From an uncultured bacterium (GTDB lineage Bacteria > Omnitrophota > Gorgyraeia > Ghiorseimicrobiales > Ghiorseimicrobiaceae): DNA of 64,000 nucleotides. Position numbers and translations under genes: made by a program. The DNA is taken from assembly GCA_913009335.1 (NCBI GenBank), contig CAJVXN010000001.1, positions 71,709 to 135,708 of the forward strand, read 5' to 3'. This document shows positions 14,942 to 62,451 of this stretch, in pieces (the stretch's first letter is position 1; each line of letters starts with the position of its first letter). The notes below the pieces were generated by a model, which saw only the letters and a list, made by a program, of their open reading frames with translations, was not told where the DNA came from and ran no database searches.

Positions 14942-14944
14942 TTT

Positions 14945-18237: not shown

Positions 18238-18292
18238 GATAAAAGCCTCTTACGATATTTTCTATAAACCGGCATCGGTAATTTCTCTCTTA

Positions 18293-18845: not shown

Positions 18846-18858
18846 TCCGGCCGTTTTT

Positions 18859-19371: not shown

Positions 19372-19385
19372 ATTCTGATAATTAT

Positions 19386-20330: not shown

Positions 20331-20333
20331 TTT

Positions 20334-21551: not shown

Positions 21552-21601
21552 AACATCCTCTCAAACCCCTCCTTTTTAAAACGCGTCCGGAAGGTTTTTA
21601 G

Positions 21602-23821: not shown

Positions 23822-23824
23822 CTT

Positions 23825-26518
<2,694 letters not shown>

Positions 26519-54300: not shown

Positions 54301-55716
54301 ATCTTTCGGAACTACCCATCCATAAACTCCGTCATTAGGCGTGGTTGCGACAATCGTATAATTATAGTTAGTCCCGCCGTCATTGGATAACAATATCTCC
54401 ACATTGGCTATCTGGTCAGGAGCATACCAGGTAATGTCTTCGGTGTCATCGCACTGCCATAGCTCGCCGCCATTAGGTGTAAAAACCTGCAGCGGCTCCA
54501 GTTCTATAACAAAGAAATCGCAGACACCCTGCTGGCCGGCCTCCATCCTTTGGAACGCAACCTGGGTGCCTAAATTAACGACAATATTGGAATGTCTAAT
54601 TCTATAATAGGCGTGCCCGCAACCGGTACTATCTTGGGTAGAAGCGCTAAAGGAAAGATCCATATCAACGGCTTGCCCCAAATCTTGTATAACCTGAGTG
54701 GTATCATTATAGGGCAATAAGACCTCGCCGGCTTCTGTCCGGCCAAGGGTACCTAATTCAACAACATACCAATAGGCATACCCCGACCCGGCACTAGTTC
54801 CCGAGGTGCGCCTGTTAAAACCTACCTGCGTATCGGAGGTGATTGCTCCTCTTTGTTCCGAGCACAAAGCTGACTCGTCAAGCCTTGTTCCGAAAAGCAT
54901 AAATGCCTTTGTGCGGTCAACAGGATTAGGCAAGTCAGATACCGCTAAAAAGGAATCTAGCTCCATATAAGACTCACCCTCATAAACCGTAGAATCGTCC
55001 TTTAACTCCACGACAAACGTCCAGACATCGGCGGTAAGATTACCACCTTCGCCAAGATAACGCCTTAATCGTACCTGGTCAGGGGTGCCATGTTGGATTT
55101 GTGTGGCAAAATAAGTCGTGTTCATACGTTCACCCCAATCCGAGGCCTGATGTTGGACGTTAGTCACCCGGGAGATAGCAAATGACTTACCCGGGGTATA
55201 ATCAACGGCAAGGGCCGCCCCGCCCGCAAACTTGTCAGTCTCAGTCGCGGCAAAGCTGGTTTCCCGATACTCGACTTCAAAAGCGTCGGATTCAATGACA
55301 TACCAGCTAATGACACAATCATAACTTGTACTACCAAATGATCTCTCGAAGGTTATATAAGTAGCTAAACCAGTAGGCGTAGGAGTTCCAACAGCGTCAG
55401 TGAATCTAGCTGCCCAGCCATGCGCGGAAGGGTATATCGCGGTATAGGTGGCGACTTCATTTCTAAATTGGAATAGGATAATGGACTTGCTTGTATCTAC
55501 ATCATCAATGTCAACGGTATAAGTGGTGCCTGAGAGTACCGACGATTCACCCGACTGCACTTTTGTCCGGGCAAAAGCAGGCGTAGCGGTAAGGTTAAGG
55601 AGAAGCCCTAAACATATAAATGAAAACAAAGAGATTATAAGAATTCTCTTTGTGAAGGCGCCTCTTCCTCCCGGCTTCAAATCCATGCTTATTTTAGACA
55701 AATCAATCGTACCCAT
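30301..55716 (-). CDS. Giant secreted repeat protein (8471 aa): signal peptide, unique ~450-aa N-terminal region, ~80 tandem Ig-like ~90-aa beta-sandwich repeats in ~681-aa supermodules, divergent ~1000-aa C-terminal region
   Basis: Uninterrupted 25,416-nt ORF. Start codon is preceded by SD AGGTGAGG. N-terminal signal LIISLFSFICLGLLLNLTATPAFA. Repeat consensus GxxTxxxPxxGExWxxGxxxxIxWxxxGxxxxVxIxYSxDGGxxWxxIAxxxxNxGxYxWTxPxxISDxxKVRVxDxxDxxVxDxSDxxFxI. The supermodule is marked by the recurring block EDCYI[KR][IV][SA]D...FSIRPVITV, seen at least 6 times. Confidence 0.85.
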   Translation of the reverse strand: MGTIDLSKISMDLKPGGRGAFTKRILIISLFSFICLGLLLNLTATPAFARTKVQSGESSVLSGTTYTVDIDDVDTSKSIILFQFRNEVATYTAIYPSAHGWAARFTDAVGTPTPTGLATYITFERSFGSTSYDCVISWYVIESDAFEVEYRETSFAATETDKFAGGAALAVDYTPGKSFAISRVTNVQHQASDWGERMNTTYFATQIQHGTPDQVRLRRYLGEGGNLTADVWTFVVELKDDSTVYEGESYMELDSFLAVSDLPNPVDRTKAFMLFGTRLDESALCSEQRGAITSDTQVGFNRRTSGTSAGSGYAYWYVVELGTLGRTEAGEVLLPYNDTTQVIQDLGQAVDMDLSFSASTQDSTGCGHAYYRIRHSNIVVNLGTQVAFQRMEAGQQGVCDFFVIELEPLQVFTPNGGELWQCDDTEDITWYAPDQIANVEILLSNDGGTNYNYTIVATTPNDGVYGWVVPKDNETTTDMIGILTDTLKVKVRDVNWNEFGRTDDTYSSDESDTNFEIIAKVQLDQPDGGEEWFYGDSYDINWTIYGDAADIGNIVIKRDESSGSGGYLTTLATVSASPTTWQWNPVDGNIGVTHKVKIEQQGEETRVYDESAANFRIKGDVTLGSLTTPWLVGTNPSIPWTHKLPNPSTQNLEIHLSRNDGATYDDLLAIVAADTSPYTGWSVVPPLVSAQAKIRIRWATDPAVASESATGFNIDGSITVTAPIVSDTWKIGESKNITWNYVGTLGTVDIFLSTNNGGTWSEIFSNLPVVNQLQAWIVAGNPTSQGLIKIQTDSYAPNEIAGESGANFTIVSVITITRPVTAGVVWRVGASENIQWTIDGALASNKVKIYYKKGTGGIWNEITQPTGWTADIGDGTGSFPWTVPNDIYDEVYIKVEDFDDAAIYHESLSIKIKGAVTVNKPVGAEVVKVSDVAETYNIQWGLTGNVTGMVDIKLSLDGGTSYPTTLTEGVVDITTGNWDWTVLDTHIGNDCMIKVAVDNDESLTTGTAGESASFFVKPQVKLTYPNETGLIKSIGDIVTVTWNAIPDTFGTVMLKYSTNGAAGPYDGTINTLPINSDLETYDWTILDVPGMVGQNTRVQVYKTDDITDVHSESDFDFVVKGTVALTGEANGVGSPVWESNIAESITWNKVGDLGTVKIEFSKDSTPNYAYTIATGLDDDDLSYSWDMPTGLFTTLDFERTEYARIKISSETDGSISDETDTPFVVQSRFSLTQPIGGETLEVEQAGGYDITWSTYGKIPQVKLAYDVNSGGDLYDRNIAAGAAISNVDLYNWTVPNSIGDKVRVKLMSYNYQSFIAVTSPADFKIKGRVEIVAPDATIIGANAWRVDNVASGLTSEESIIWNNYGDLGSGTDQVTIKYAADGSTFDTTLTTTADGTNGLNRNYLWTIPDNIGTTNKIAIEDISHANSALHIFQESQAFEIKGQVKLTAPVGGETYYIGGSPIDITWVYAGSLGNVNLHFSDTDGASWDPAFDTIAVGYTQPYQWTVPDNPTIDAKIKIEQASDNSVSTEEFLVSKFRIRGSVFIGSNPNASTVWTVTANNNIIDWSITGSIATVAIDLDTISGTGGYSELIVSSVSGSAGTYTWTIPLAEYVDVTTDNARIRIRDTTDASVNDESIADFKIKPVINLTAPDGGEHWAIESTPNITWEYWGDVPQIKIEYSLDGGNIWEDPPISSGYDASALQFPWTIPNKANNDTIVRISKVGDPDVPSYSSDQSQAWFEIMGVLELTQPNGGINIDYGTPYDIKWIPTGTITNVKIEYSTDAAHAIWNTVAGAASLAPGASGVENSHSWTVPDESSATVKVKIFEISNAAYVTDESATDNAIIGHITIVYPMNADEMIAETSYTIEWSYDATSIPGFDIDYHDGTSWNPVTTSSLSQGTTTYNWTVDDNIGNTVKVRVKDKDNANVYGESTADNIIKGSVDLTDPDGYETLIVGGPFDITWTKTGSIGNLLIEYSNDDFSFDFNTISASYAADSLVYPWDPIDDFIDNNVKVRVTSIGGIPVTDQSQNPFSIKGSFTNMSPNGGQIWYVGDTDKVVTWTANGSIASVDIRYKTSLAGAYDNVIVLNDTGHVDGSNQYAWTTGVTDENSEDCYIKISDNADSDVFIESAVAFSIRPVITVSEPLVDSNTVVGSSYVDGIVWSLNGSVKVTEADVLFSTTGIGGPFDKTIATGVDATLGKVDWNNVGDYLSGDVVVKVLDKSGGTGNPNVYGLSSSFDIIGSITMTDGVHTPDSSSNWQAATTDKYITWTHTGSLGNVNIRYKYDGGAYSAPINPAPIAVETHSYNWPAIPSTISENVQVKVESENNPGEEYAESLPFKIKGGFTINTPAAPLKSGTSYDITWDNLGLQTEIPTAKLEFYDGSVWHNIDYKSTDTGLVTNSGTYAWSVPVDVRNSGCVFKISDPDNADAVDTTGTFYLLPDIAVTAPLSTVKWLIGTQTGNLIDWNHTGLDFTVKIEYSKDDGSDGYAYLVDTGVGVLASAGTFEWNIPTDQDILSTSQAKIKVSDAGFPSLYDTSESFMLKAAVTVTKPDTDDSLPVLDIFNIQWTTTCTGAADMGNVQIEFRPKDTESYTTVATVAFNSSPYTLWSPPADSIRGSIKEADIKITDVDNTEVTDTSDKFNIKGKIQIDSPNVGAQTWFVGDTTREIKWTPTGVYSNTEIHYAKDTPDANPANFLSPVLIATEANSGSGVQVTYVWPQIPNSAMGNDIRVRVRDAADTNVYSISQDAITIGGKITINEPQAGRIWKKDEVKDISWTSDGDVTNVNIQYKTTALGSWNDIETNYTGGGTYGEGSNSYPWTVVDVNSEDCYIRVADYNNSTIVYGDSLQFSIRPVITVTTPALDVNLEVDSLGNTISWNLNGSTKVSNVKLYYSYDGGPFTNVIDESGTVDATLDYTWNNIPDTISDNVVVRVIDNDNANVYGDSASFDIIGKIIISAPSSGVNWRAGQVKTIDWGTSKGTMGLVRLFYWFNSQYNLIDTGGDINSDVTTTFGWTVPANLITGSTIKILDVDTEGTVDEVTAISASFNIIGNIVVDTPSAITVWKKDETNKLIEWTSTGAVTNVKIEYKTSAGGSYAGNTIVADDPGHTAGANSYTWALAVPDINSEDCYVRVSDVNYYDDVFGESAQFSIRPLITVSIPALDDNLVVGSDNNSIIWSLNGSAQVTTVDIHYQINAGGYGVNVVKTAVSAIAEASDWDNVPDSIDGNVQIRVMDVDNNNVYAESASFDIIGSVTVQQPNSSANWEVGTTDKNITWIYTGSIGTVNIYYDYGTGYGAPIASVPVSDQSYSWNPIPDNVSETVKVKIADADNETEVVDESEVFSIRGGFTITFPSAPTTLISGTGYDITWNRTGTDISNVILEFSDDNGAGWSDIDNNAPNTGTYAWTAPVNVASTNCLIKVTDPDNPSATDTIASNFEVRAKITLSDPIASDEWVVGTSENIAWTVTGVVSNVKIEYSKDGGTGYPLTAVASYDASLSPYPWAIPVTDVSLEDLRTPDQAKIKVSDASYSVVYDTSPNFMVKGGIAVSAPVTSDILHVSDPFNITWITTGFYDVGSNVVIGYSITGGAPFTNIDTVAFDYGSGSYPWTPPIDSITTDLKNAVIEIKDADNPTKVRDESDLFEIEGKIQIDAPDTSGLMWTVNSSRDIKWTPTGTYGPIEIQYSKDNFASDFQPVNTVTNSASGVQGTYSWTIPNDISDTVKVRVRDDNDDDVNDVSGFDVKIVGGLDLTVPESGEVWKKGETKDITWTATGDVTNISIEYKTSAAGGYTTIIADDSGHLAGGNSYSWTSVADENSEDCYIKISDVAHPVDVQSVSAAAFSIRPVITVTTPALDDNLIVSSSGNAINWTIDSSIKVNPVDVHYSVDGGAYTGNTIAIGVTASDLTTNWDNVPDAVSDNVKVRVMDSVNNNVFGESASFDIIGSVTVQQPNSSANWEVGTTDKNITWIYTGSIGTVNIYYDYGLGYGAPIASVPVTDQAYSWNPIPDNVSETVKVKITDADNETEVVDESDVFKIRGGFILVQPPAVLISGDPYTITWTPNGVDIATALLQFSSDNGQNWNPIDGGTGLVSNTGTYGWTIPSDVVSSTCLLKITDPDNSAATDTISSTFEVRAKIVVNAPIGTDEWNVNSAYDVKWTVTGLVTDVKIEYSKTGGAPYTETLVASRDASLSPYSWTILPTQDVISSQGMIKISDTSYATVYDESPEFSIIGDVQVTAPVGTDVLRVGDTFDIEWTSVGAGNIIIGYSTTGGAPFTNIDTVPYDYNNRAYPWTPPIDAITANQKLAVIEMKYENNPLKVRDESDLFEIEGKIQIDAPDTGGLMWTVNSSQDIKWTPTGTYAKVEIQYSKDNFAADFQPVNTVTNSASGVQGTYSWTIPNDISDTIRVRVRDDDDDDVNEVSGFDIKIVGSLDLTVPESGEVWKKGETKDIIWTATGDVTNISIEYKTSAAGGYTTIIADDSGHLAGGNSYSWTSVADENSEDCYIKISDVAHPVDVQSVSAAAFSIRPVITVTTPALDDNLIVSSSGNAINWTIDSSIKVNPVDVHYSVDGGAYTGNTIAIGVTASDLTTNWDNVPDAVSDNVKVRVMDSVNNNVFGESASFDIIGSVTVQQPNSSANWEVGTTDKNITWIYTGSIGTVNIYYDYGLGYGAPIASVPVTDQAYSWNPIPDNVSETVKVKITDADNETEVVDESEVFTIRGGFTITFPNLSTDVLISGTGYDITWNRTGTDIPTVLIEFSSDNKQNWSTIDAAASNTGTYGWTAPSNVASQACFIRISDPDNASAADDSDQNFEVRAKIDVTGPIVTDEWAVGAAYDITWTVTGIVTNVKIEYSKDGGTNYTEELVASRPYDQSPYSWTVPSDKDILSTQGVIRVADASYAAANGESPEFSVIGFITVNAPVTSDILHVGDAFDIQWNAIGYGMGNVTIGYSITGGAPFTNIDTVPYDFGVPAGTYSWTPPDSAITSDLKNAVIEVKADYYPTGVRDESDLFEIEGKIQIDAPDTSGLMWTVNTPHDIKWTPTGTYTPVEIQYSKDNFAADFQPVATVTNSASGVQGTYSWTIPNDISDTVKVRVRDDNDDDVNDVSGFDVKVVGSLDVSVPESGEVWKYNESKNITWSAVGDVSNVKIEYKTSAAGAYNVIVTDDPGHVQGGNSYAWTVADENSEDCYIKISDVVHPADVYSESAASFSMRPVITVTTPALDSNIEVASNGNAIVWSLNGSAKVSYVNLYYSVDGGPFTNVIDETGSVDATAGAFTWNSIPDTISDNAVVRVIDTTNSNVYGASASFDIIGKIRVTTPAIGENWGVGELRTITWDPDGTLGNVKIYYYHDGAYEWIATVPHAPSSYDWTVAAQIEENTTIKIVDEDTEATVDEVAGVSAAYNIIGNFSLDAVPATLSAGSSYSITWDPLGLQGEIPTAKLEFFDGLIWHNIDYKTTDNGLVTNSGSYSWSVPTDVKSIACQFRITDPDNASAIDTSNSFEVRAVISVTSPVSSDKWVIGTSGNIISWNITGVVDTVKIEYSKDGGLSYPGAFVVEPSLPAASTPYDWTIPTNLDILTADQAKIKVSDSTLAVAYDESADFMMKSGITVTKPDTNNILKVLDAFNIEWTTLGLADMGNVDIEFSKIGSAPWTIVATVAFDSSPYTLWFPGIGDITTNSKAAVIKITDVDNTEVTDNSDAFEIEGKIQLDSPDIDAPTWYVGDPQQIKWTPTGTFSYVKIEYSTNGFADELEITVEAASYSNSASGVQGTYDWTIPDEIGGSLKVRISDVNDSDVVDVSSVPFVIKGSLTLNEPNGGDTWYVADTNKKIRWQATGSVTTVRIEYSKNNGGAWTEIIADAFAGPGAGEYTWPSVADAISELCLIRVSDTNDATVNDESDGVFSIKGKIQVIAPDGTERWIAQSSGHNITWNLTGSIQDVKITYSVDAGAFDNVIAASVTGSDESYTWNNIPNHVSDTYLIRVADLNDETNVYGTSPAFSIVGDITVTEPSGGEQLPVGSDFKVEWTKVGDFANVRIEYSLNGGTDFNDQIVSSTATDNLFYWWMSIADNAVSPNVVVRVTDDSDIQVYDDSLAFKVQAIFDIISPDGGVVWAVGSSHDIIWTTSGDVTNVKLEYSTDGGNNWVIPNGDVISASIVNTGSKSWTIPDAISDLVRVRVSDVNDSDASNMSASNFKIRGDLQVTSPNSGAESWLIGASEPITWTVTGSVATVKLEYSVDGQAYVQIPGADNLTADTGGGGGSFDWTIPNDASSLVKVKITNKDDSTVYDESDNDFTITGQLTLSAPVGSEVWYVQDQETISWTKTGTIPTVKLEYSVGGAAYQPVQDADNLSGLTYDWIIPDDIDNQVKVRVSNTDITEPTIVGVSGLFSIKGKLQITNPASGVVWDVAQQKDITWITTGSIATVRLEYDYGSGLNPITASVNASNQIYQWTIPNTIGDNVTVKITDNLDNTVTHTSNVFKIAADINLLSPMGTEVWIVDNSEPITWEKFGDIVNVVLKYDTNEGLNGYPNTIATRPAVDGSYSWPVPDVIGDKLRVRIEDANASSSTQPDESPANFEIQGSITITSPALNDIWLCETQHDIAYTIHGSIANVSIEYSTDAGVTYPYAPIAGSVAVGPGDYTQTWTIPLDTSIQTVIKIINLADANVYDESNEFSMRGGFTFVHPVSTDRWLANSTNMISWNTLGAISSVYVEYSLNNGGVWGYVNDGSAISNATENYNWTIPNVISQQALVRVTDTADPDATTTSDNFNIHGALTVAQPNGQDKLKVGQSDESSKVKWTMIGPLSGVDIALSTNGSGGTYTTFATNQQASLLEYAWSVPMSTLSNNCFIRIRDTQDSLVEDFSDLAFKIMENFNVTVPNGTEQWVVSDVETITWTSQGLASSVNLKYATVAPYDTWTPIVTDEINDGNYDWTIPPTISATCRVRVSDYNDDTDSFDMSDNDFKIQGRITLNIPNGGEKWGCADNKYIDWDWDGNITNVDIHYYNGSIWVAIAAAQGITNIGEYEWNIPSIATDQALIRVRSTADLANVYDISANPFKIMSRIVIQNPNGAEVWYSGSSGTINWAKYGPASFGSVKIDYSVNDPTFTNPIPITTSTASDEAFDWLNIPPEAVSGNVRIRVAHPSDSDVYDISDGDFRVRATLILTAPNGGQKITVDDPYTISWSELGDTQGVKIYCYKQTQPAIKYTIATAAPVGGTYAWTIPDFIHSDLIMRVEDPNDTDAFDISDSTFKIMPGFTVSSPDASSKWYVNDPATISWTYTGTVVDVGIYYSTVGGIAGTWNALTSVSASDLSWTWLSVPDEITAQLKVKVAAANDADAYGESAGMAKIRAKFTLTAPTGGEELVVGDTFQIAWDTVGTVSNVDLHYSLDDFTTPKDIQLGWANGAAGGTYDWTIPDDISQIVKVRVKSSTDDDAYSISNDLRIKGNLWINAPVLDDSWDIEQDYDIEWGWVGTIPEVEITYSINGTGGPFNLILESYNIADDGIVANGSGSGGAGSNYTYTWTVPDQATADAIIKVVDARPTESDVVAQSDSFHIIGYIIVNGIKEQGSGQLVTELAVDSVYDIAWEWGGTMSEVKITYSTNGDTGPFNPIVESYDIANDGIVQNGAGSGGSGSEYTYAWTIPDTISPDCKIRITDPGDATVFGESGTFKIQGAFTLIAPAVTLNSSGIYESRWVTNEVREVSWTTFGTINTVDLVYSKDDFVTEIALKDDLDQDATGIANTGTFDWKIPDDRSTTVKIRIYDSNDHTVYVEGPVVAGGVDTMKIDYYKIIWDIRDLVTNQPISGLTVSDTSGWDAAGLASPVSHEVPAGFWSATWTHQDFGTITESYLVGWDEDAQIWRGDRTIYRTMETLVVHIWRAYSEFAYNVEVWNDNGTPADPDDDYVETPDKLDITTWLERDGALVSGALIIDVSIYDSIYKIKRKTTLVDEANNKHLYYDDVDAGVKLWVGDRSGEVRTMDDVINDCAAYKTGEMDIPSDFAGFFQQSWTPTPYTAGADSYLTLQSGKVYAVTSYMGLATGATFTTPVSFTVTIPMKMADMETTVDSMISTVNTALDKPISEVSTELQATLTAQTAVIDQKMTDQTDMIQTSMGNMETMIDVAMTSFETSVSASLILLEDSAVTAEEAAGLLEETALKYSWGASASPDPALTNDTITITCQGQPGYSPALTIYDADSKTVFSDVVMSESEPGIYTYEFKADDAFEAGKSYSFVITESVTGGLVYGSGLVAKYEWTTAAFPDPVLLGDTIIIQCMGLPKVVPLLTIYDWEGNIIEDSLVMVESSTRAGFYEYSLKADSRFTGGKAYTYNIIEEESSTLLTGAGMVESMSITTVAGLAASAPRAAAAAKKALEAIKAIESVLISGESINIALTLKNLKASVDSLPDAMAKEGPSATITRAINDISDRMRTLAGDEGYDLSTILEEAIEESPTLRRIREKADSINSSVDVMGQIMETKMGGLEDPVVIFE
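41606..42400. repeat. Intragenic direct repeat, copy 1 (709 nt identical to copy 2, then ~95% identity); period 2043 nt = 681 codons
   Basis: 41606-42314 is nucleotide-identical to 43649-44357. The plus-strand antisense ORFs 41813..42043 and 43856..44086 translate identically. Flanking copies near 40.3 kb and 46.4 kb are about 85-90% identical. Confidence 0.85.
43649..44443. repeat. Intragenic direct repeat, copy 2 (see 41606..42400)
   Basis: Same as above, offset 2043 nt. Confidence 0.85.
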
Positions 55717-55729
55717 TTACCTCACCTGA

Positions 55730-56185
55730 TTAATACTCTTGCTCAAGGATAACTTTTCCATATTTATCATACTGTTTTGCTTTCGCTAAGAGATTATTTT
55801 TATAGGCCTTCTGAGACAATAGCTGTCCGTTTTCATAATATTCTTTGACAACGACAATACCTTGCTTTTGGTCTCTATAGTCCCACTCTCTCATCAAAGC
55901 TCCGCTGATGTAGTATTCATTGATAATACCGGTCAGCTCGTTGTTTTTAAAGCGTCCTTCATAATTTAAGTTGCCATCGGGGCAGCATTCTTCGGCAATG
56001 CCATCCAGTTTTTCATTCCCATAGGACTTTTCCCACATTAATTGTCCATCTTCATAATAGTCCTTAAAAATAATATGATTTTTATCGTCTTTTACCGGCT
56101 CTTGCCCATAAACCAGGCTGCAAGAAATCATAACCGGCATAAGTATTAGTAATACTGCTTTTTTAAATAAACTAACCATTCCCAT
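55730..56185 (-). CDS. MORN-repeat (MORN_2-like) lipoprotein
   Basis: Signal plus lipobox (LLILMPVMISC). Repeated Y.E.G.L..E..Y.N.K.DG units (YYEDGQLMWEKSYGNEKLDG; YYENGQLLSQKAYKNNLL). Stop lies 13 nt upstream of the giant gene start. Confidence 0.55.
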   Translation of the reverse strand: MGMVSLFKKAVLLILMPVMISCSLVYGQEPVKDDKNHIIFKDYYEDGQLMWEKSYGNEKLDGIAEECCPDGNLNYEGRFKNNELTGIINEYYISGALMREWDYRDQKQGIVVVKEYYENGQLLSQKAYKNNLLAKAKQYDKYGKVILEQEY

Positions 56186-56186
56186 T

Positions 56187-56639
56187 TTATTTCTTTCTGA
56201 TTATTTCTTTAGCATATAAAACCTCGGGTAATGCTAAATACGTATTAAGCAACGCGGCCATATCAATTGATACGTCGAGTTCAAACTGAATGATGAAAAT
56301 ATCCTTGACCTGGACTACATCGTTCCCTAGCGCAATTTCTTCTTTTCTTGTTTTGTTGGTAAACACCTGATTTACTTCTGCCGTATTTCCTATTGTGGCC
56401 AAGGCATAAACTTTTTCAATTTTTTCCGCGTTATACTGAGAATTAAGATTCCTTAAATCGGTTGACCTTACCCTGACAGCAGAAAGAGGAACTACAGAAA
56501 CTTCGTTTTCCGGCAAGGCAATAGTCCGAGACTCAACCTCAATCATAATTTCTTTATGCGCTGTTTCTCCCTGAGCGTAACAAATTCCCGCGCCAATAAT
56601 CAAACCGCCTACCAAAATGATTATCATTACCTTATTCAT
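56187..56639 (-). CDS. Secreted hypothetical protein (150 aa)
   Basis: N-terminal signal MNKVMIIILVGGLIIGAGICYAQG. No motif recognised. Confidence 0.4.
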   Translation of the reverse strand: MNKVMIIILVGGLIIGAGICYAQGETAHKEIMIEVESRTIALPENEVSVVPLSAVRVRSTDLRNLNSQYNAEKIEKVYALATIGNTAEVNQVFTNKTRKEEIALGNDVVQVKDIFIIQFELDVSIDMAALLNTYLALPEVLYAKEIIRKK

Positions 56640-56641: not shown

Positions 56642-57910
56642 TTATCCTCTCTTTTTTCTTTGCCCCTTAGAGACAAATGAAAAATCCCTGACTCTCCCGT
56701 CAGGGTAACGCCTGCTTAAAACACCGCTCATCTTTTCTCCGTCCCATTCTCCGCGCCAGCTGACAGTCGAACCTTTTGCATTACTTTGCATTGTTTCCCA
56801 AACGACTTTCCCGTTAGCATGTACATTTTTCGTATAATTTGTAGCTAAAAAACCTTCCTGTTTCATATTATTGGAGTTAAATCGGCCATCTTCAAATGAA
56901 AGCGTATCGATTTTAATAAAACGATTTTGTAATCCGCTCAATGATGTCAATTCTATTACCCAGGCATAGCCTTCAATTTCCCGCGCCTGCTTGGCGTCCT
57001 CTAATGCCTGTTCAGCCAATTTAATCTTCCATTCATATTGCTTAGTATCCATATTTGCTTTAAGGGCTTTGTCTCTTTCGATTCTAAGCATATCTATTGT
57101 TTTATCATAGAGAGCTAAAGTTTTTTGATATTCTGACCTAAATGCACTGCTCTGGCGATAAAAATAACCGGCAATAATAACTACAACAAGAATTGTGGCG
57201 CCGGCAATAAATATATATAACGGGCGTACTTTTTTTAATCGCTGTTGATTCCTCTGCTCTTGCACGTAATCCTGGATTAAAGCCTTTATGTGTTCTGTAA
57301 ATTCTTGTGAACCTAAAATATTTTTCCGATGTAACTTCTTTTTAAAATCATTTAACTCTTTCTGATCAACATTTTCAGTATAGCCTATGAATTCTTCCTC
57401 CCGGCCGCCTAACGCACGAAAGACTTCTTCGATTTCTTCTTTCATATCCGGATGCCCTCTATGTGCCGGATCAACAAATCGCGAATAACTAGAATGCGGA
57501 TAATCCTTAGGATTATCGCATATTTTTGCCCTTATTGGATTTAAGTGCAGATGGCGCAAAAAAGGCAATATATAGTCTTTTTTCTCCGCCAAAATCGCGT
57601 TAAATCTTGCCTGAAAAAGATGCCCTTTCTTATTATATCGGCTATTGAATGCTTTGGTATATAAAGAATTGATATCATGCATAATGCTGGAGATAGAAAT
57701 ATTATTTCTTAGCTCAATAAGCATATGAATGTGCGTAGGCATTAAACAATAAGAAAAAAGCTTAAATCCGTATTGTGTCTTATAATTATTAATTAGGGAC
57801 ACGTATTCATAGAAATCGGATGCATCCACAAACAAGTTTTGGGCATAACCACTGCGTGAAGTTACGTAATAAAGGATTTTTTCTACATAAACTCTTGGTA
57901 GTCTCGGCAT
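56642..57910 (-). CDS. Membrane-anchored fusion: N-terminal IS200-like HUH (Y1 transposase/RAYT-like) domain + TM + coiled coil + C-terminal WETMQ-family periplasmic domain
   Basis: Residues 1-150 match the COG1943/Y1_Tnp family (VYYVTSRSGYAQNLF...FSYCLMPTHIHMLIE...GHLFQARFNAILAEK...LHLNPIRAKICDNPKDYPHSSYSRF). TM is LYIFIAGATILVVVIIAGYFY. The C-terminus VVWETMQSNAKGSTVSWRGEWDGEKMSGVLSRRYPDGRVRDFSFVSKG is paralogous to 58213..58899 and 60932..61378. Confidence 0.65.
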   Translation of the reverse strand: MPRLPRVYVEKILYYVTSRSGYAQNLFVDASDFYEYVSLINNYKTQYGFKLFSYCLMPTHIHMLIELRNNISISSIMHDINSLYTKAFNSRYNKKGHLFQARFNAILAEKKDYILPFLRHLHLNPIRAKICDNPKDYPHSSYSRFVDPAHRGHPDMKEEIEEVFRALGGREEEFIGYTENVDQKELNDFKKKLHRKNILGSQEFTEHIKALIQDYVQEQRNQQRLKKVRPLYIFIAGATILVVVIIAGYFYRQSSAFRSEYQKTLALYDKTIDMLRIERDKALKANMDTKQYEWKIKLAEQALEDAKQAREIEGYAWVIELTSLSGLQNRFIKIDTLSFEDGRFNSNNMKQEGFLATNYTKNVHANGKVVWETMQSNAKGSTVSWRGEWDGEKMSGVLSRRYPDGRVRDFSFVSKGQRKKRG

Positions 57911-57928
57911 ATTGCCCTCTTGCTTCTA

Positions 57929-58019
57929 TTTGCCAGGTACTACTCCTAAATCTTAAGTTTAGCTCAAAGTGCCTGGCACTTTTATGATTTTCAAAAAAAA
58001 ATCCAGGCAAATCACCTGG
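57929..58019. repeat. Palindromic (REP-like) elements in 300-nt intergenic spacer upstream of the HUH-fusion gene
   Basis: Inverted arms tgccaggtac (57931-57940) and gtgcctggca (57969-57978). A second palindrome tccaggcaaatcacctgga sits at 58002-58019. Both share a ccagg core. Confidence 0.35.
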
Positions 58020-58212
58020 ATTAATAATTCAATGTTTCGGTAATCTGCCAACCCTCTGCAAAACTATTGCAAAGGGATGCACGACTTTGCGTCCCCAGAT
58101 TACTCCGGGTTTGCCTTTATCGAACTTAAATCTAATTTTTAGAGATCGGCTATTCTTCATTAAAAGTATACCCGATTTTTTGACAATTTCAAGAGGTTAA
58201 CGAATTATTTTC

Positions 58213-58899
58213 CTAGCGAAACCACCCTTTTTTCTTCTTTGTTTTTTCTTTCTTTTGAGACTTTGCTGCCTGCTCTGGATCTTCTTTTAACTCCGGCTGA
58301 GCAATTTTAGCCTCATCCTGAGCTATTTCCACATCCGGAGCCGCTACTACCTCTACTTCTTCTATAAATTCACTGCTAACAGACTCCAGCTCTTCTACAA
58401 CAAGCTCAGGGTTCAATTCTTTCTTTGTGCTACTTACAAAAGAATAGTCTTTTACCTTATTATCAGCTAAATGTCGGCTTAATACTCCGCGCATAACGCC
58501 ATTTTCTACTTCACCCTTCCAGAACGCAAGACCTTTCTTATCGCTAGTCTGCATTGTCTCCCAAATAACTATATCTTCTCCTTTGAGACTCAATGTAAAA
58601 TTCGAAGGTAAAAAACCATCCGATGTCAGTTCTTTCGATTTAATTTGATTATCAACAAAATTCAAGGTATCATTTGTTTTACGTTTCTTCTTCTCGCTTG
58701 TCATCTGTGTAAGTGTAATTTCCCAAGTCGAACCATTAAGCTGATCTTTTACATCTTTAAGGATTTTTCTTGTTTTTTGCGCATCATTAACCTTGTTAGC
58801 AGATGCCTTTTCTGCCCAAGCGAGATTTAAAAAAATAAAAGACAAAAATATAGCTGCAATTACTAAAAAGCTCTTTTTTTTATTAAATAATACTGTCAT
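58213..58899 (-). CDS. Secreted WETMQ-family protein (paralog 2) with lysine-rich C-terminal tail
   Basis: Signal FLVIAAIFLSFIFLNLAWA. Domain LNGSTWEITLTQ...IVIWETMQTSDKKGLAFWKGEVENGVMRGVLSRHLADNKVKDYSFVSS. C-terminus KKEKTKKKKGWFR. Confidence 0.5.
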   Translation of the reverse strand: MTVLFNKKKSFLVIAAIFLSFIFLNLAWAEKASANKVNDAQKTRKILKDVKDQLNGSTWEITLTQMTSEKKKRKTNDTLNFVDNQIKSKELTSDGFLPSNFTLSLKGEDIVIWETMQTSDKKGLAFWKGEVENGVMRGVLSRHLADNKVKDYSFVSSTKKELNPELVVEELESVSSEFIEEVEVVAAPDVEIAQDEAKIAQPELKEDPEQAAKSQKKEKTKKKKGWFR

Positions 58900-58936: not shown

Positions 58937-60388
58937 CTACTCTTTAATATAGGCTTTTATTATCTTCACATCTTTTTTAGGCTTTTCATTAGAATCAACG
59001 GCGACATTATTAATTTTCTCTACTACCTCGTAACCCGAAGTAACTTCTCCGAATATAGTATGCCGATTGTTTAAATGCGGCGTTGGTTTAACGGTTATAA
59101 AAAATTGGCTCGTATTGGTGTTTGCTCCTGAGTTTGCCATAGCTAACAGCCCGGGCTTATCAAACGAAATATCGTCACTTAACTCATCCTCAAAAGGCTC
59201 GCCCCATAAAGATTCACCGCCTGAACCCGTCCCTTCGGGGTCACCTGTCTGTATCATAAAATCCTTAATCACACGGTGAAATATTATCCCGTTATAATAC
59301 CCTTTTTCAGTCAACCCAATAAAATTCTCACAAGCCTTAGGCGCAATCTCCGGAAATAGCTTTAATTCTATATTACCACTATTAGTCTCCAATACAAGCA
59401 AAGATTTCTTTTTTAATTCTTCTATTTTCAAAGCCCGCCTGTCTTCCGCCACATAATCCCTATAATTCGCGCGTTTAAGTAAATCTTCAAAATATCCCTT
59501 AATTATCTTACGTTTTTTGCCTTGAGTAAGCAAATCTTTATAATATTGTTTTTTCTTATCATTATACTTGGTAACATCCGCTCGCCTTTTATATAAAAGA
59601 CGGAAGACCGCATCTCCGTAATAAAACTTCGCGGCTATAAAACTACCCTCGTCAAAGTCAAGAATCCGATAAGCATCTTCTTTGGGTATCTTCCAAAGGT
59701 CAATTAAAGCCTCCAGAGACATTATATTTATCCAGGATGACCCCTTCTGGCCCAGAGGTTTTTTTTCATCATAAGTATCTTTCCAGAACCTAGGATTACT
59801 TTTTACTTTTTCAAGAAACTTCTGCGCATCTTCCTGATTGTCAAATTTTATATATTCACTCTCGAAAGAATTATATTGGTTTAAAAACTTCTGCTCCATT
59901 TCTTCTTCGGTTACGCTAATTTCGGGATTAGTCTTAACCTGCATAAACTTATTTATGGTAAGCAGGTCTTTAATGCGCTGTTCAAAAATATCGGCACCTT
60001 CTTTTAATTGCGTTACAACCCATATATGATAATCATCACTCTCATATTCAATATCTTTTTCGGAAAGCAGGCGTTTTATTTCTTTTTCAAGTTCATCCTG
60101 ACCTATAGCAATACCTATGTCTTTTGCCTCATGTAAAAATATTAAATTCTGCCAGGCCTCCTGTACAACTTCCTCTTCGGTTCTTTCCTCGGCAGCCTTT
60201 CCCGTGCGCGTAAAAATTAAAGCTGTTTTATAATAATAAGTGAATTCTTCGCCTGTTACGGGCCTGCCAAACGCCTCACCGACCGCGCCGGTGCTTATGC
60301 GTTCCGCTTGCGCTAAACTAAAACTATTAAAACCGCTTATCAAAAATAACCCGACTACGGGAAGTACCGATAAAATCCGTTTAATCAT
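58937..60388 (-). CDS. Periplasmic chaperone/PPIase: SurA-N-like domain fused to cyclophilin-type peptidyl-prolyl isomerase
   Basis: Signal peptide. C-terminal cyclophilin signature GYYNGIIFHRVIKDFMIQTGDPEGTGSGGESLWG...GLLAMANSGANTNTSQFFIT. The N-terminal ~300 aa are helical and SurA/trigger-factor-like. Confidence 0.75.
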   Translation of the reverse strand: MIKRILSVLPVVGLFLISGFNSFSLAQAERISTGAVGEAFGRPVTGEEFTYYYKTALIFTRTGKAAEERTEEEVVQEAWQNLIFLHEAKDIGIAIGQDELEKEIKRLLSEKDIEYESDDYHIWVVTQLKEGADIFEQRIKDLLTINKFMQVKTNPEISVTEEEMEQKFLNQYNSFESEYIKFDNQEDAQKFLEKVKSNPRFWKDTYDEKKPLGQKGSSWINIMSLEALIDLWKIPKEDAYRILDFDEGSFIAAKFYYGDAVFRLLYKRRADVTKYNDKKKQYYKDLLTQGKKRKIIKGYFEDLLKRANYRDYVAEDRRALKIEELKKKSLLVLETNSGNIELKLFPEIAPKACENFIGLTEKGYYNGIIFHRVIKDFMIQTGDPEGTGSGGESLWGEPFEDELSDDISFDKPGLLAMANSGANTNTSQFFITVKPTPHLNNRHTIFGEVTSGYEVVEKINNVAVDSNEKPKKDVKIIKAYIKE

Positions 60389-60931: not shown

Positions 60932-61378
60932 TTATTGTTTATTGGTAAAAGAAAAATCGAATGTCCTGCCGCTATTATCTTTTTGAGTTAATACGCCCCG
61001 CATAACGCCTTCATTGATGTCCCCTCTCCAGAAAGCAAAATTATCTTTTCCGTCAACCTGCATTGTCTCCCATATTACAGTACCGTCTTCTTCGACTCTT
61101 ACGGTAAAATCCGTAGCCTCAAAACCGGCAGACTGTAAATTCTTTGAAGACATTTGACCGTCGCTAAAAATTATCACATCGCTCTCTGCGCTCCCCCCCC
61201 CGGATAAAGGTTTTACCGTTACATTCCACTGCGTACCGTTTAGCTCTTGCTTTTTAGCCGCGGATAGTTCTTTTTCCGATAAAACCTGAGCGGAAGAAAA
61301 ATTAACTATTGAAAAAATTAAACCAGCTGCAACCAATAGCATCAAAAATCGTTTCAACATAACTACCTCCTTGATCAT
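60932..61378 (-). CDS. Secreted WETMQ-family protein (paralog 1, minimal single-domain form)
   Basis: Signal LMLLVAAGLIFSIVNFSSAQ. Domain LNGTQWNVTV...VIWETMQVDGKDNFAFWRGDINEGVMRGVLTQKDNSGRTFDFSFTNK. Confidence 0.5.
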   Translation of the reverse strand: MIKEVVMLKRFLMLLVAAGLIFSIVNFSSAQVLSEKELSAAKKQELNGTQWNVTVKPLSGGGSAESDVIIFSDGQMSSKNLQSAGFEATDFTVRVEEDGTVIWETMQVDGKDNFAFWRGDINEGVMRGVLTQKDNSGRTFDFSFTNKQ

Positions 61379-61380: not shown

Positions 61381-62451
61381 TTATCTCATTATTGATTTGC
61401 CGCTATAAGTCTCCCAGGTAAGCAAATATTTTCTCACCCAGTCCACATCTTTATCATCACTCTTACTAAGCCTTAAAAAATGCCGGAAGTTCTCAATAGC
61501 CCTTTCACGATTTACTAAATATTCGGCATAAATATACCCTAAATTAAAATGCGCGTAGGCATCATCCGGGTTAATCTCTATAGCCTTCTCGAATTCCGCG
61601 ATCGCCCGCCTGTATTCCTTATTCTTCGTATAGAACACGCCTAAGTTGTAATGCATCTTAGAGGTTTGCTTAATAAGAACTTTATTCTGCCGGGCAATTT
61701 CGGAAAATTTTTTGGGCATTCTTTGTATCTCTTTTTCCAGCGCCTTATTTTTCTTAACAGCGCCGGCATAATTTTCCTTATATTCATTAAGGCTAGCATC
61801 TAAATCCTCGATTTTGGCATTTGCCCCCTGAAGGTTTTCTTTTAGCTTTGAGATATCTTTCCCGGATTTTTCCTTTAATTTATCAATATCGCTATTAGCC
61901 CGCTTAAAGCGTTTATTCAAATCGTTATTTTCTTTCTTAAGATTAGAATTTTCTTTCTTAAGTTCTTTTACAACTATCTTTTTTACGGCCCTTTCATAAT
62001 CCACCTTAAGTTTATCACGTTCTTTTTCCAGCTCTTTTTTTGTTTCAATAAACTGTTTAAATTCATCTTGTAATTGTTGATACCGGCCGGTTGAATCCTT
62101 TTTTTCGGATTTGAGTAGTTTATTTTCTGAACGCGACTCTTCTAAATAATCTTCTAATTCCTTAGCATCGGATCTTTCCCGAAGAAGCTTTTTTGTCTGC
62201 AGCAGCACATTATCACGGTCATCCATTACTAATTTGTAATCTTTATTTAAAGCGCCGTAATCATTCCTCAATTTCTGATTTTCTGTTGTAAGTCTCTTGT
62301 ATTCAGGGTCCCTGCTTTCTAATTCGTGAGTTATGTCTTTTAGCTCTTGAGAGAGACTTTGAGATTTATGAACAAAATAAATAATTCCTATGCCCGCGAC
62401 AAAAAATAGAATGGATAGACAAATTACTAATATTTTGATTTTGCTCATCAT
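61381..62451 (-). CDS. Bitopic membrane protein with long coiled coil and C-terminal TPR repeats (secretin/pilus-associated scaffold candidate)
   Basis: N-terminal TM ILVICLSILFFVAGIGIIYFV. About 220 aa of K/E-rich heptad coiled coil. C-terminal TPR-like helices NLGVFYTKNKEYRRAIAEFEKAIEINPDDAYAHFNLGYIYAEY. Confidence 0.55.
   Translation of the reverse strand: MMSKIKILVICLSILFFVAGIGIIYFVHKSQSLSQELKDITHELESRDPEYKRLTTENQKLRNDYGALNKDYKLVMDDRDNVLLQTKKLLRERSDAKELEDYLEESRSENKLLKSEKKDSTGRYQQLQDEFKQFIETKKELEKERDKLKVDYERAVKKIVVKELKKENSNLKKENNDLNKRFKRANSDIDKLKEKSGKDISKLKENLQGANAKIEDLDASLNEYKENYAGAVKKNKALEKEIQRMPKKFSEIARQNKVLIKQTSKMHYNLGVFYTKNKEYRRAIAEFEKAIEINPDDAYAHFNLGYIYAEYLVNRERAIENFRHFLRLSKSDDKDVDWVRKYLLTWETYSGKSIMR

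Follow-up and report, generated by a model that had tools for sequence, protein, structure and literature searches.

The 422-aa protein encoded at the centre of this report is best explained as a dedicated, vertically inherited part of the Omnitrophota giant-protein/T2SS-like locus, in which a transposase-type Y1 domain, judged from its residues to be exapted and essentially non-catalytic, is joined to a transmembrane (TM) helix, a coiled coil and a beta-barrel. HUH/Y1 domains are known from transposons, plasmids and viruses as enzymes that cut DNA, and to our knowledge the known domesticated bacterial forms, the RAYTs, are still soluble nucleases; here a phylum-wide lineage keeps the HUH fold strongly conserved while the catalytic residues decay, and wires it into the membrane beside a secretion machine. 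An earlier note on the 64,000-nucleotide stretch of DNA analysed here (the window) had read the gene as coding for a membrane protein of a secretion locus that carries a domesticated HUH domain on its cytoplasmic face, and not as a mobile element, and this reading held on every test run. The features on which the analysis rests are collected in Table 1.

Table 1. Features of the window around the gene for the Y1-TM protein, numbered from the first nucleotide of the window.
Feature	Positions	Strand	Basis or remark
T2SS/T4P-like assembly genes, 3' of giant gene	14384..24280	(-)	
Giant 8471-aa secreted repeat protein, last gene of putative operon	30301..55716	(-)	
Small MORN-repeat protein gene	55730..56185	(-)	
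Small 150-aa gene, 2-nt gap 3' of Y1-TM gene	56187..56639	(-)	Position kept, sequence poorly conserved
Y1(HUH-like)-TM-coiled coil-beta-barrel protein gene, 422 aa	56642..57910	(-)	ORF; full-length orthologues; AF2 pLDDT 88.4
Eight-stranded beta-barrel ("WETMQ" domain), residues 313-415	56666..56974	(-)	AF2 pLDDT 91.5
Periplasmic helical/coiled-coil stalk (predicted), residues 251-312	56975..57160	(-)	AF2 helices 202-284 and 290-308
Single transmembrane helix, residues 228-250	57161..57229	(-)	Hydropathy 2.46; orthologues; positive-inside bias
Helical linker, residues 148-227, with invariant ILGSxEF (G200, F204)	57230..57469	(-)	
RAYT-like Y1/HUH fold, residues 1-147, predicted cytoplasmic	57470..57910	(-)	Pfam Y1_Tnp; 4ER8 profile alignment; Foldseek; conservation
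His120, at the catalytic-Tyr position	57551-57553	(-)	
HUH motif, H60-I61-H62	57725-57733	(-)	
Leader motif AAAGTGCCAGGCAC, short hairpin with conserved 5' AAA, terminator-RBS interval	57969..57982	(-)	
Intrinsic-terminator hairpin AATCCAGG-TGATTTG-CCTGGATT and T-run, expression platform	57993..58022	(-)	
c-di-GMP-I-class aptamer	58035..58124	(-)	Best Rfam model RF03167 (c-di-GMP-I-GGC)
Sigma-70-like promoter match TTGAAA-16-TATACT, 5' of aptamer	58165..58192	(-)	10/12 consensus positions; pattern match only
Secreted barrel-domain paralogue, 228 aa, signal-peptide-like N terminus	58213..58899	(-)	
SurA-N and cyclophilin peptidyl-prolyl isomerase (PPIase)	58937..60388	(-)	
Secreted barrel-domain paralogue, 148-aa ORF (P0121)	60932..61378	(-)	142 aa in public call
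TM, coiled-coil and TPR protein adjoining secretin	61381..62451	(-)	
Secretin (GspD/PilQ-type), upstream, same strand	62486..63988	(-)	Pfam Secretin E = 4e-50

Homology of the N-terminal region with the Y1_Tnp family, asserted in the earlier note without database searches, was confirmed with the Pfam HMM (PF01797; residues 18-110, 48.7 bits against a gathering cut-off of 23, E = 1e-12), and the HIH motif and DYP..SSY tail to which that note had pointed are both present, the tail as DYPHSSY. The NCBIfam model REP_Tyr_transpos (NF047646) matched residues 5-140 at 71.7 bits, narrowly missing its equivalog cut-off of 80. Apart from Y1_Tnp no Pfam or NCBIfam family matched the 422-aa protein, and the Pfam search returned no HTH or wHTH domain, including Bac_DnaA_C, HTH_23 and HTH_28. 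The AF2 model contains an HUH-nuclease fold, with pLDDT >90 over residues 11-200, and Foldseek matched the Y1 domain to 4er8_A, 2f4f, 2xma and 2vjv (E = 4e-7 to 1e-3), the top match being 4er8_A, E. coli TnpA-REP (E = 4e-7, TM 0.75). A direct phmmer search of the whole protein against the PDB gave a marginal match only (2fyx, E = 0.39), and the residue-level alignment to 4ER8 was reached only via the family profile.

The active site of TnpA-REP includes the catalytic tyrosine Y115 (PMC3479197). In the profile alignment this tyrosine of helix alphaD, whose counterpart the earlier note had left to be identified by structural alignment, corresponds to His120 in RHLHLNP; the metal ligand H123 corresponds to Ala128, and the metal ligand N119 to N124, which is kept. 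Among 115 orthologues position 120 is His in 62, Tyr in 41 and Gln in 6 (non-Tyr in 74), and the HUH motif is intact in 81 and lost in 34. Both HUH and Tyr are kept in only 27 of the 115, as against 33/42 of the nearest soluble relatives. The earlier note had singled out an RF where many family members have RY; R102-F103 are literally there, but not as the catalytic position, which is His120. Reading RY to RF as loss of the nucleophile was ruled out, since the aligned residues of TnpA-REP itself, R97-F98, are likewise RF and the soluble relatives carry Y in 22 and F in 19 cases.

The Y1 core is under purifying selection and more conserved than any other part of the protein, with a mean pairwise identity of 57% and 42/147 columns at 90% or more, compared with 40% identity in the barrel and 22% in the TM helix. 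The invariant R102 and the mostly conserved Q100 align with R97 and Q95, residues by which TnpA-REP contacts DNA; the hairpin-specific R78 and K82 of that enzyme are replaced by H78 and S82 in the window protein. Because so few orthologues keep both HUH and Tyr, and yet the core is the most conserved part, we consider the Y1 domain to be an exapted and essentially non-catalytic one, an inference from sequence. Since some orthologues retain the Tyr or the full HUH and Tyr pair, residual chemistry in some lineages is not excluded.

The part of the protein beyond the Y1 domain proved as the earlier note had described it, with a TM helix, a coiled coil and a C-terminal domain in common with two secreted neighbours. 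Hydropathy analysis (Kyte-Doolittle) found one strongly hydrophobic segment, with a score of 2.46 over 19 aa, and a TM helix was found in 114/115 orthologues. The AF2 model has a single long helix (202-284), then a second one (290-308) and, at 315-414, a domain of eight strands. The linker also gave weak profile matches with Wzz chain-length determinants (E about 0.1), which we put down to noise from coiled-coil or low-complexity sequence. Lys and Arg flanking the TM helix number 4.64 on its N side versus 2.72 on its C side, with N exceeding C in 89/115 orthologues, and an N-terminal hydrophobic segment was found in none of the 115. On this bias, on the lack of such a segment and on the signal-peptide-like N termini of the standalone barrel paralogues we predict an N-in/C-out topology with the Y1 domain in the cytoplasm, in agreement with the placement proposed before.

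The C-terminal 110 aa or so are 35-38% identical to the two secreted paralogues, with WETMQ invariant. No Pfam family covers this barrel, which has so far been seen in Omnitrophota only, and Foldseek found no PDB fold for it at E<=1e-3, only weak lipocalin/calycin-like matches. The barrel cannot be the functional core, because a group of relatives (Class B) without a barrel or any sensor-like periplasmic domain has kept its locus position unchanged.

The same fusion occurs at full length in >115 orthologues (33-80% identity), and relatives are present in the genomes of 242 GTDB species, nearly all of which belong to Omnitrophota, which answers the question whether homologous fusions exist elsewhere. 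A frameshift or assembly join, the possibility that would have undone the earlier reading, is refuted by this conservation and by the identical 422-aa protein on 4 independent public contigs. Soluble relatives that combine Y1 with Bac_DnaA_C/HTH have the same helical linker with ILGSxEF, and their HTH part begins at about residue 220-230, matching the start of the TM helix.

The gene holds a fixed position across 80 genome loci, and throughout the phylum it is syntenic with a secretin and a giant ORF: the giant ORF lies 3' of it in 56/58 loci, a secretin upstream in 31/53 and the TPR/coiled-coil protein in 37/53. The assembly genes on the far side of the giant gene in the window encode an MshEN protein, a GspE-MshEN-PilZ ATPase, GspF, GspG/J/K pseudopilins, PilM-PilN and PilO/GspM. 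The operon normally runs from promoter, c-di-GMP-class riboswitch, terminator and leader hairpin to the Y1-TM gene as first cistron, the small gene or genes and the giant gene; co-transcription of the Y1-TM and giant genes is inferred only from the gene spacing of 1 to 13 nt.

The aptamer scored 59.1 bits with RF03167, for which the gathering score is 59 (E = 3e-12). It recurs in 6/6 further loci and in 73/80 genome loci, lying 92-475 nt upstream of the Y1-TM gene in 67 of the 80, and it covaries strongly, with 95.7% of cells paired and 15/20 pairs compensatory, a result matched by 0/500 shuffles. A hairpin and T-run follow about 36 nt 3' of the aptamer in 72 of the 73 homologous leaders. In the minimum-free-energy (MFE) fold of the window leader an antiterminator, GGCAGAUUACC pairing with GGUGAUUUGCC, competes with the terminator, and an antiterminator is present in the MFE fold of 29/72 leaders. 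The window leader's fold suggests that ligand binding would favour termination, an OFF switch, although both the binding and the sign of switching are inferred. In the literature searched we found only mentions by name for the RF03167 variant and its ligand, and no c-di-GMP riboswitch linked to Omnitrophota giant genes.

Downstream of the terminator, the leader motif AAAGTGCCAGGCAC occurs once in the window, and in 1.22 Mb of homologous loci 73/81 occurrences lie <500 nt 3' of an aptamer. The element is strand-specific, its variants are G.U-compatible, and it stands downstream of the promoter and terminator, which together point to RNA or ssDNA as its acting form rather than a dsDNA operator. 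In 4/80 loci and in one further locus (L006) riboswitch and motif lie on the downstream side of the Y1-TM gene, so that what the motif tracks is the leader of the giant gene, not the Y1-TM gene. A sigma-54 promoter reading of GTGCCWGGCAC was rejected by eye (misfit of the -12 GC spacing; TGGCAC form mostly antisense). The motif does not suit a CsrA-type GGA site either, and the leader holds no tRNA genes. Riboswitch, terminator and leader hairpin constitute a regulatory entry point; with it and the Y1-TM protein the control and export of Omnitrophota giant proteins become directly testable.

We lean, with moderate confidence, towards the proposal that the Y1-TM protein serves the giant-protein secretion operon specifically, as its membrane adaptor or regulator, and is a bitopic inner-membrane protein (N-in/C-out) with an exapted, essentially non-catalytic Y1 head. 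Relative to the soluble Y1 proteins with DnaA_C/HTH, the HTH would have been swapped at the same junction for a TM helix, followed by a coiled coil in the periplasm and, in the branch to which the window belongs, a barrel. The periplasmic stalk and barrel might dock to the periplasmic paralogues or to secretin-side machinery, and the cytoplasmic Y1 domain would bind a ligand there without cutting it. That ligand would most plausibly be a single-stranded nucleic acid folded into a short hairpin with a 5' tail, as RAYTs recognise GTAG and REP, and the best candidate for it may be the leader element of the operon itself, AAAGUGCCAGGCAC. In this way the protein could link the secretion site with the expression of the giant-gene transcript or with its localisation. 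Binding partners, the regulatory sign and nucleic-acid binding itself are all inferred, there being no direct evidence that the protein binds nucleic acid or the leader motif.

The adaptor proposal has to be weighed against a purely structural role, which we think unlikely without being able to set it aside. The Y1 domain could be a cytoplasmic protein-protein module, docking a GspE-type ATPase, PilM-PilN or the locus's AAA_22 ATPase, in a T2SS-like structural subunit of GspL-like layout that touches no nucleic acid. A cytoplasmic domain of about 225 aa, one TM helix, a coiled coil and a small domain do resemble assembly-platform proteins of the GspL/PilN type, the gene is always in a secretin/T2SS-like locus, and the catalytic residues are dispensable. 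On the other hand, PilM-PilN and PilO/GspM already have equivalents in the window, the invariant residues include R102, counterpart of a base-contacting Arg of TnpA-REP, the nearest relatives are all DNA-binding architectures, and the gene is co-regulated with the substrate and not with the machinery genes.

A specific and more speculative form of the adaptor proposal, for which we would claim little probability, is that the dead, membrane-tethered HUH domain recognises 5'-AAAGUGCCAGGCAC in the manner of a RAYT, as RNA or as non-template ssDNA in the transcription bubble. It might thereby anchor or license transcription of the giant gene, 25 kb here and far longer elsewhere, at the secretion machine, in a process akin to transertion or processive antitermination, with the cyclic-dinucleotide riboswitch gating entry into the operon.

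It was also conceivable, though in our judgement decidedly improbable, that the protein is a one-component regulator like ToxR, in which secretion status, or a signal from the envelope or prey, is sensed by the barrel or coiled coil and the Y1 domain acts on DNA to switch transcription of the giant-gene operon. An N-in domain of DNA-binding type, one TM helix and a domain in the periplasm make up the ToxR/CadC layout, the soluble relatives have an HTH, and the operon leader has a conserved sequence element. That element, however, has a position, strand specificity and G.U compatibility that suit RNA or ssDNA better than a dsDNA operator, no HTH or wHTH is present in the window protein, and the Class B proteins have nothing resembling a sensor.

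DNA can move through secretins and pilus-like systems. This background, the intact HUH and retained N124 of the window protein, the orthologues with HUH and Tyr, and dprA/comM near one locus (L007) would allow an active membrane HUH endonuclease that nicks or processes, in relaxase style, ssDNA taken up or exported through the T4P/T2SS-like machine and secretin. We regard this as very improbable in view of the His at the nucleophile position, the non-Tyr majority and HUH losses among orthologues and the metal ligand replaced by Ala128; moreover, it is with a giant secreted protein and not with competence genes that the gene is tightly and universally linked. Public annotations call the gene "transposase" or "RayT", but neither an IS200/IS605-type insertion of the usual kind nor an artefact that joined a transposase gene to a membrane-protein gene downstream of it is tenable. 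Both are already refuted by the uninterrupted, widely conserved ORF in its fixed position, by its single copy in the window and by the absence around it of tnpB and of subterminal hairpin pairs or terminal inverted repeats. As the earlier note had maintained, a second IS gene and convincing terminal repeats are lacking, the best inverted pair (17 nt, 88%) being at chance level with both arms in coding sequence; nor do REP/BIME arrays of repeated palindromes flank the gene.

The Y1-TM protein adds a concrete and previously unremarked component to loci whose products are the largest bacterial proteins known, and the "transposase" and "RayT" labels may cause mobile-DNA flanks next to giant genes to be overcounted. 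Were recognition of the leader element to prove true, the Y1 domain would be the first of the HUH domains to have been turned into a receptor for nucleic acid that sits in the membrane and serves protein secretion.

A conserved T2SS-like locus with a conserved PPIase has been described for Omnitrophota giant genes (West-Roberts et al. 2023, bioRxiv 10.1101/2023.11.21.568195), and the window resembles those loci in its gspD/E/F homologues, PPIase, PilZ proteins and giant gene. The main text of that study describes no transposase-like membrane protein and has 0 occurrences of "transposase", "IS200" or "secretin". The aptamer behaves like c-di-GMP-I (GEMM-I) riboswitches (Rfam clan CL00126) in reaching the gathering score, in covarying and in having a terminator-type platform; its RF03167-type form precedes a giant-protein operon, and its ligand is only predicted by class. 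In layout the Y1-TM protein is like ToxR/CadC regulators and GspL-type bitopic proteins, with a cytoplasmic N-terminal binding domain, one TM helix and a periplasmic domain, but it has no sequence or fold kinship with either, its cytoplasmic domain being HUH and not wHTH or actin-like, and Pfam and NCBIfam gave no family match to known T2SS/T4P components (GspC/L/M/B, PilN/O/P).

With the IS200/IS605 TnpA proteins (IS608, ISDra2, IS200) the window protein shares the HUH/Y1 fold (Foldseek E = 1e-5 to 1e-3) and the Pfam family. Those enzymes are obligate dimers with a Y-x3-Q motif, multi-copy, with subterminal hairpins and often tnpB, none of which applies here. The nearest soluble relatives by phmmer are TnpA-Y1 proteins of subclass 2.1, with a C-terminal Bac_DnaA_C/HTH (Quentin et al. 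2018, PMC6006769), in a classification that mentions neither a transmembrane subclass nor Omnitrophota. They have in common with the window protein the Y1 core, a Ser motif after the Tyr helix, the ILGSxEF linker and an extra-domain junction at about residue 220-230. They differ in that their HTH is cytoplasmic and HUH and Tyr are mostly kept, whereas the window protein has TM helix, coiled coil and barrel instead and eroded motifs.

The best match of the Y1 domain, in sequence profile as in fold, is the RAYT TnpA-REP (E. coli YafM, PDB 4ER8), likewise a single-copy, vertically inherited, "domesticated" Y1 domain, and the motifs S74, YTK, GHLFQxRF, xIHxNP and the DYPxSS tail are common to both. 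RAYT binds a hairpin with a conserved 5' tetranucleotide (PMC3479197), a target that the leader motif, with its 5' AAA and short hairpin, resembles in general form. RAYT, however, has only about 165 aa, is soluble and monomeric, and comes with HUH intact (H59/H61), the catalytic Y115 and flanking REP/BIME arrays, whereas the window protein carries His at the Tyr position, has TM and periplasmic domains, is without REP arrays and belongs to a secretion/giant-protein operon.

The Y1-TM gene, named for the Y1/HUH domain and transmembrane (TM) helix of its product, is an uninterrupted frame of 422 codons. Residues 18-110 of the protein match Pfam Y1_Tnp (48.7 bits against a threshold of 23, E=1e-12), the NCBIfam RAYT model covers residues 5-140 at a score just below its cut-off (71.7 against 80 bits), and both the H60-I61-H62 (HIH) motif and the DYPHSSY tail are present, which bears out the N-terminal alignment proposed in an earlier note. 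The TM helix, coiled coil and shared C-terminal domain described there were likewise recovered: residues 228-250 are the sole strongly hydrophobic stretch, AlphaFold2 predicts the helices, and the final ~110 residues share 35-38% identity with two ORFs nearby, with W-E-T-M-Q invariant. The AlphaFold2 model, built on a 46-sequence alignment, is confident (mean pLDDT 88.4), and its first Foldseek match in the PDB is the E. coli RAYT TnpA-REP with its REP hairpin (4er8_A, E=4e-7, TM-score 0.75 on the target), followed by the IS200, ISDra2 and IS608 transposases. Modelled alone, the C-terminal domain is a small meander barrel (pLDDT 91.5) with no Pfam family by sequence and no PDB fold match at E<=1e-3, just generic lipocalin/calycin-like similarities; its 138 relatives are all Omnitrophota 'hypothetical proteins' of 135-220 aa.

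No member of the family has an N-terminal hydrophobic segment, and a TM helix lies at about residue 231 in 114 of 115 orthologues. Within the 15 residues flanking this helix, K+R averages 4.64 on the N side versus 2.72 on the C side (N>C in 89/115, N<C in 16/115), and the standalone barrel paralogues have signal-peptide-like N termini. On these grounds, and by the positive-inside rule, we infer that the Y1 domain would be cytoplasmic and the coiled coil and barrel periplasmic, which favours the orientation first suggested for the HUH domain.

We found no frameshift or assembly join, and the fusion recurs elsewhere: four independent public contigs encode the identical protein, and among 5.8 billion proteins searched there are 301 relatives, more than 110 of them with 33-80% identity over 96-100% of the query. 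Every named relative is a Candidatus Omnitrophota protein, annotated 'transposase' or 'RayT'. When one genome was scanned for each GTDB species, 242 genomes contained relatives; almost all of the best 80 loci belong to MAGs or SAGs of Omnitrophota, the exceptions being a few contigs binned under different names. These latter (L013, L030, L035, L038, L056, L059, L067, L082 and L089), titled as uncultured Planctomycetia, Ratteibacteria, Deltaproteobacteria, Eisenbacteria or Promethearchaeota archaeon CR_4, bear an Omnitrophota-type locus, and their labels probably reflect taxonomy or binning issues. The data support a derivative of a RAYT-like Y1 domain that is anchored in the membrane, inherited vertically and spread across the phylum.

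A second membrane-anchored Y1 class (~300-335 aa) appears among the best-ranked phmmer representatives; it lacks the barrel, and its C-terminal periplasmic helix bears the conserved motif EKYRADxVSYQAMxKRLExEKxK. Genes of this class too have a riboswitch before them and a giant ORF directly after them (>4085 aa at locus L007). The assembly of L007 (GCA_043826565.1 / JBDRPX01) also carries a barrel-type locus, L074, each locus having its own riboswitch and downstream giant ORF, and two parallel systems are therefore possible per genome.

On the minus strand the Y1-TM gene is preceded, in order, by genes for a secretin, a TM/coiled-coil/TPR protein, a barrel paralogue, a 175-aa unknown protein, a SurA-N/cyclophilin protein and a further barrel paralogue, and then by a 302-nt gap; it is followed by a 150-aa gene (2-nt gap), a MORN protein gene (1-nt gap) and the giant gene (13-nt gap). 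Beyond these, F1-type ATPase genes are accompanied by a complete T2SS/T4P-like set (MshEN, GspE-MshEN-PilZ, GspF, GspG/J/K, PilM-PilN, PilO/GspM). The order AAA_22 ATPase, unknown, secretin, TPR/coiled-coil protein, gap, Y1-TM gene, small gene, giant gene is the same around distant orthologues, a barrel-less protein and high-GC members. Where at least 4.5 kb of downstream DNA was present (58 of the 80 genome loci), 56 loci have a same-strand open frame of at least 1000 aa, usually starting 400-700 nt past the Y1-TM gene and mostly running beyond the fetched DNA; of 53 loci, 31 have a detectable secretin gene upstream and 37 the gene for the TPR/coiled-coil protein. These arrangements support an operon that adjoins a T2SS-like system on the latter's secretin side. 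A conserved T2SS-like locus that includes a PPIase and adjoins Omnitrophota giant genes was reported by West-Roberts et al. (2023), whose description makes no mention of the Y1-TM protein. A bioRxiv study (10.64898/2026.06.07.730766) counted 'transposase' flanks of giant genes as a sign of mobile-DNA-rich neighbourhoods; since the Y1-TM family carries such annotations, some of these calls, which we did not compare, could be the non-mobile Y1-TM gene. The F1-type ATPase genes may represent either the usual atp operon or an ATPase specific to this locus; the ORFs scanned yielded no recognisable a, c or epsilon subunit.

Upstream of the Y1-TM gene lies a predicted c-di-GMP-I-class aptamer, which Rfam also detected in each of the six other loci to which it was applied. 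With a covariance model made from the seven sequences, 73 of the 80 genome loci gave a match: 72 have a single aptamer, and L073 has two weak matches side by side. All are on the strand of the Y1-TM gene, 92-475 nt (median 127) upstream of it in 67 loci and just downstream in 4. Covariation gives the structure strong support: pairing holds in 95.7% of cells, compensatory changes occur in 15 of 20 pairs, and none of 500 shuffles attained the observed values. A hairpin and T-run follow ~36 nt past the aptamer in 72/73 leaders. Judged from sequence, then, a c-di-GMP-I-class riboswitch and terminator platform heads the operon across Omnitrophota, its ligand and ON/OFF sign being unverified; that Y1-TM is the first gene of a cyclic-dinucleotide-riboswitch-controlled operon ending in a giant secreted protein is supported. 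In the leader of this window, the minimum free energy fold has the terminator loop region (GGUGAUUUGCC) paired with the aptamer's 3' strand (GGCAGAUUACC), and we therefore tentatively suggest that ligand binding would favour termination (an OFF switch); a similar antiterminator is predicted in 29/72 leaders. The neighbourhood also encodes a GspE-type ATPase with MshEN and C-terminal PilZ domains, a separate small MshEN protein and a histidine kinase-GGDEF fusion, and a locus wired to c-di-GMP at RNA and protein level alike would fit.

Between terminator and RBS lies a conserved leader motif, whose core GTGCCWGGCAC begins ~22 nt past the T-run start and occurs once in the 64-kb window (57969..57979). 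The core is strand-specific. Homologous loci totalling 1.22 Mb contain 81 copies, of which 73 are no more than 500 nt past an aptamer, in 59 of 73 leaders; in these the 5' AAA is kept in 52-58/59 and the centre A in 48/59, and the 3' flank is unconserved. Where the exact 11-mer is missing, leaders have variants, GTGTCAGGCAC and GTGCCAGGTA among them, in which G.U keeps the pairing, often as two tandem copies; across these 59 leaders and those of the six further loci, copy number is 1-5. When the riboswitch lies past the Y1-TM gene, as in a few loci, the motif has shifted with it. The motif has the look of a 5'-tailed hairpin formed by RNA or a single strand, resembling in general form the GTAG + REP substrate of RAYTs (PMC3479197), and might be an element for protein binding or of antitermination type. 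This leader is also crossed by ORFs or N-terminal extensions that are spurious, 'PGFFFxN..SA.HF.L' being terminator and motif in translation, and some of the public gene annotations in this stretch are likely errors. A further terminator-like hairpin (CCCTGAC-GGGAGA-GTCAGGG, weak T tail) is probably coincidental, although it could attenuate read-through into the downstream genes.

Features of the Y1-TM locus and protein (window coordinates unless a locus or residues are named)
Feature	Position	Remark
Y1-TM gene	56642..57910(-)	
Barrel paralogue genes	58213..58899(-); 60932..61378(-)	secreted neighbours
Giant gene	30301..55716(-)	8471-aa secreted repeat protein
Sigma-70-like match	58192..58165	before aptamer
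Predicted c-di-GMP-I-class aptamer	58035..58124(-)	best Rfam model RF03167 (c-di-GMP-I-GGC), 59.1 bits, gathering score 59, E=3e-12
Terminator hairpin and T-run	58022..57993	after aptamer
Leader motif AAAGTGCCAGGCAC	57969-57982(-)	~13 nt after terminator T-run; short hairpin, conserved 5' AAA
Aptamers, further loci	L004 9780-9861; L005 9708-9799; L006 11366-11451; L007 9778-9861; L008 9624-9721; L009 9832-9914	
Leader-crossing gene calls	57807-58010(-); L006 11485-11925	also N terminus of public protein P0036
Terminator-like hairpin	56686-56705(-)	inside 3' end of Y1-TM coding sequence
F1-type ATPase genes (b/delta fusion, alpha, gamma, beta)	24277-28752(-)	between giant gene and MshEN/GspE genes
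c-di-GMP protein parts	21602-24280(-); 10336-11865(-)	
Barrel-less Y1 class	L007 10001-10948	public proteins P0244, P0247, P0256, P0257, P0272 etc.
Alpha/beta domain	residues 13-127	AlphaFold2
Three short helices	residues 142-195	AlphaFold2
Single very long helix with TM segment	residues 202-284	AlphaFold2
Helix	residues 290-308	AlphaFold2
Eight-strand domain	residues 315-414	AlphaFold2

The active site of TnpA-REP comprises Y115, H59-M60-H61, N119, H123 and E161 (PMC3479197), and its sequence (4ER8) can be aligned to the family profile over residues 4-144. The position of the catalytic Tyr could thus be located, but the residue there is His120 (RHLHLNP versus DYIYINP), with N124 and Ala128 opposite N119 and H123; both HUH histidines are retained. 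The 'RF' remarked on in the earlier note is present (R102-F103) but is not the nucleophile site, and it is uninformative on the nucleophile because TnpA-REP itself reads RF at R97-F98. At position 120, 62 of 115 full-length orthologues have His, 41 have Tyr and 6 have Gln; HUH is unbroken in 81, and only 27 keep HUH and Tyr together. With soluble relatives taken from phmmer, run exhaustively (24,732 representatives at E<=1e-3), we found both features in 33/42 of the nearest soluble relatives, 14/47 membrane-anchored relatives with a barrel and 12/23 without. The Y1 core is nonetheless the best-conserved part of the protein (mean pairwise identity 57%, 42/147 columns at >=90%), against 40% for the barrel, 32% for the linker, 29% for the coiled coil and 22% for the TM helix. 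Invariant residues include Y84-T85-K86, N89, G96 and R102; the TnpA-REP counterparts of R102 and Q100 are R97 and Q95, residues in contact with the foot of the REP hairpin and the guide tetranucleotide, whereas the hairpin-specific R78 and K82 are H78 and S82 here. These patterns support the view that the catalytic residues are no longer under selection while the fold and putative nucleic-acid-contacting residues still are, and the simplest reading, for which there are no binding data, is a Y1 domain retained for binding and not for cutting.

We therefore lean, if only slightly, towards a non-catalytic adaptor or regulator. We are far less sure, in the absence of binding data, that the protein's cytoplasmic ligand is a nucleic-acid hairpin, which could be the leader motif; the leader motif as the specific ligand is doubtful. 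The protein might be purely a protein scaffold, which we consider unlikely but worth keeping in mind, set beside the conservation of the putative contact residues. A ToxR-like regulator would share the inferred topology, with its cytoplasmic and periplasmic domains, and is an improbable alternative. An active membrane HUH nuclease can point to the retained histidines, but with His120 in the place of the nucleophile it has very little to recommend it. An ordinary insertion sequence or an artefact is ruled out by the identical contigs and full-cover relatives, by a position identical in every genome examined, and by the absence of tnpB alongside the gene and of IS-like ends around it, the sole flanking inverted pair being 17 nt at 88% with both arms coding; the claims that terminal repeats and a second IS gene are lacking hold, and, with the secretin/T2SS-like neighbours, so does that of a domesticated, non-mobile HUH domain in a secretion locus.

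We found in the searchable literature no transmembrane, periplasm-reaching HUH/Y1 form, no catalytic-motif erosion in such a form, no fixed place for one in a giant-protein operon and no riboswitch control of such an operon. Domestication of HUH/Y1 domains and accretion of C-terminal domains are already known, from RAYTs and subclass 2.1 proteins. The closest soluble relatives of the Y1-TM protein, which combine Y1_Tnp with Bac_DnaA_C/HTH, are that same subclass 2.1 of Quentin et al. 2018 (PMC6006769), whose classification does not mention a transmembrane form. Both share a helical linker with ILGSxEF, but where subclass 2.1 proteins continue into the HTH from ~residue 220-230, the Y1-TM protein enters its TM helix from exactly there.
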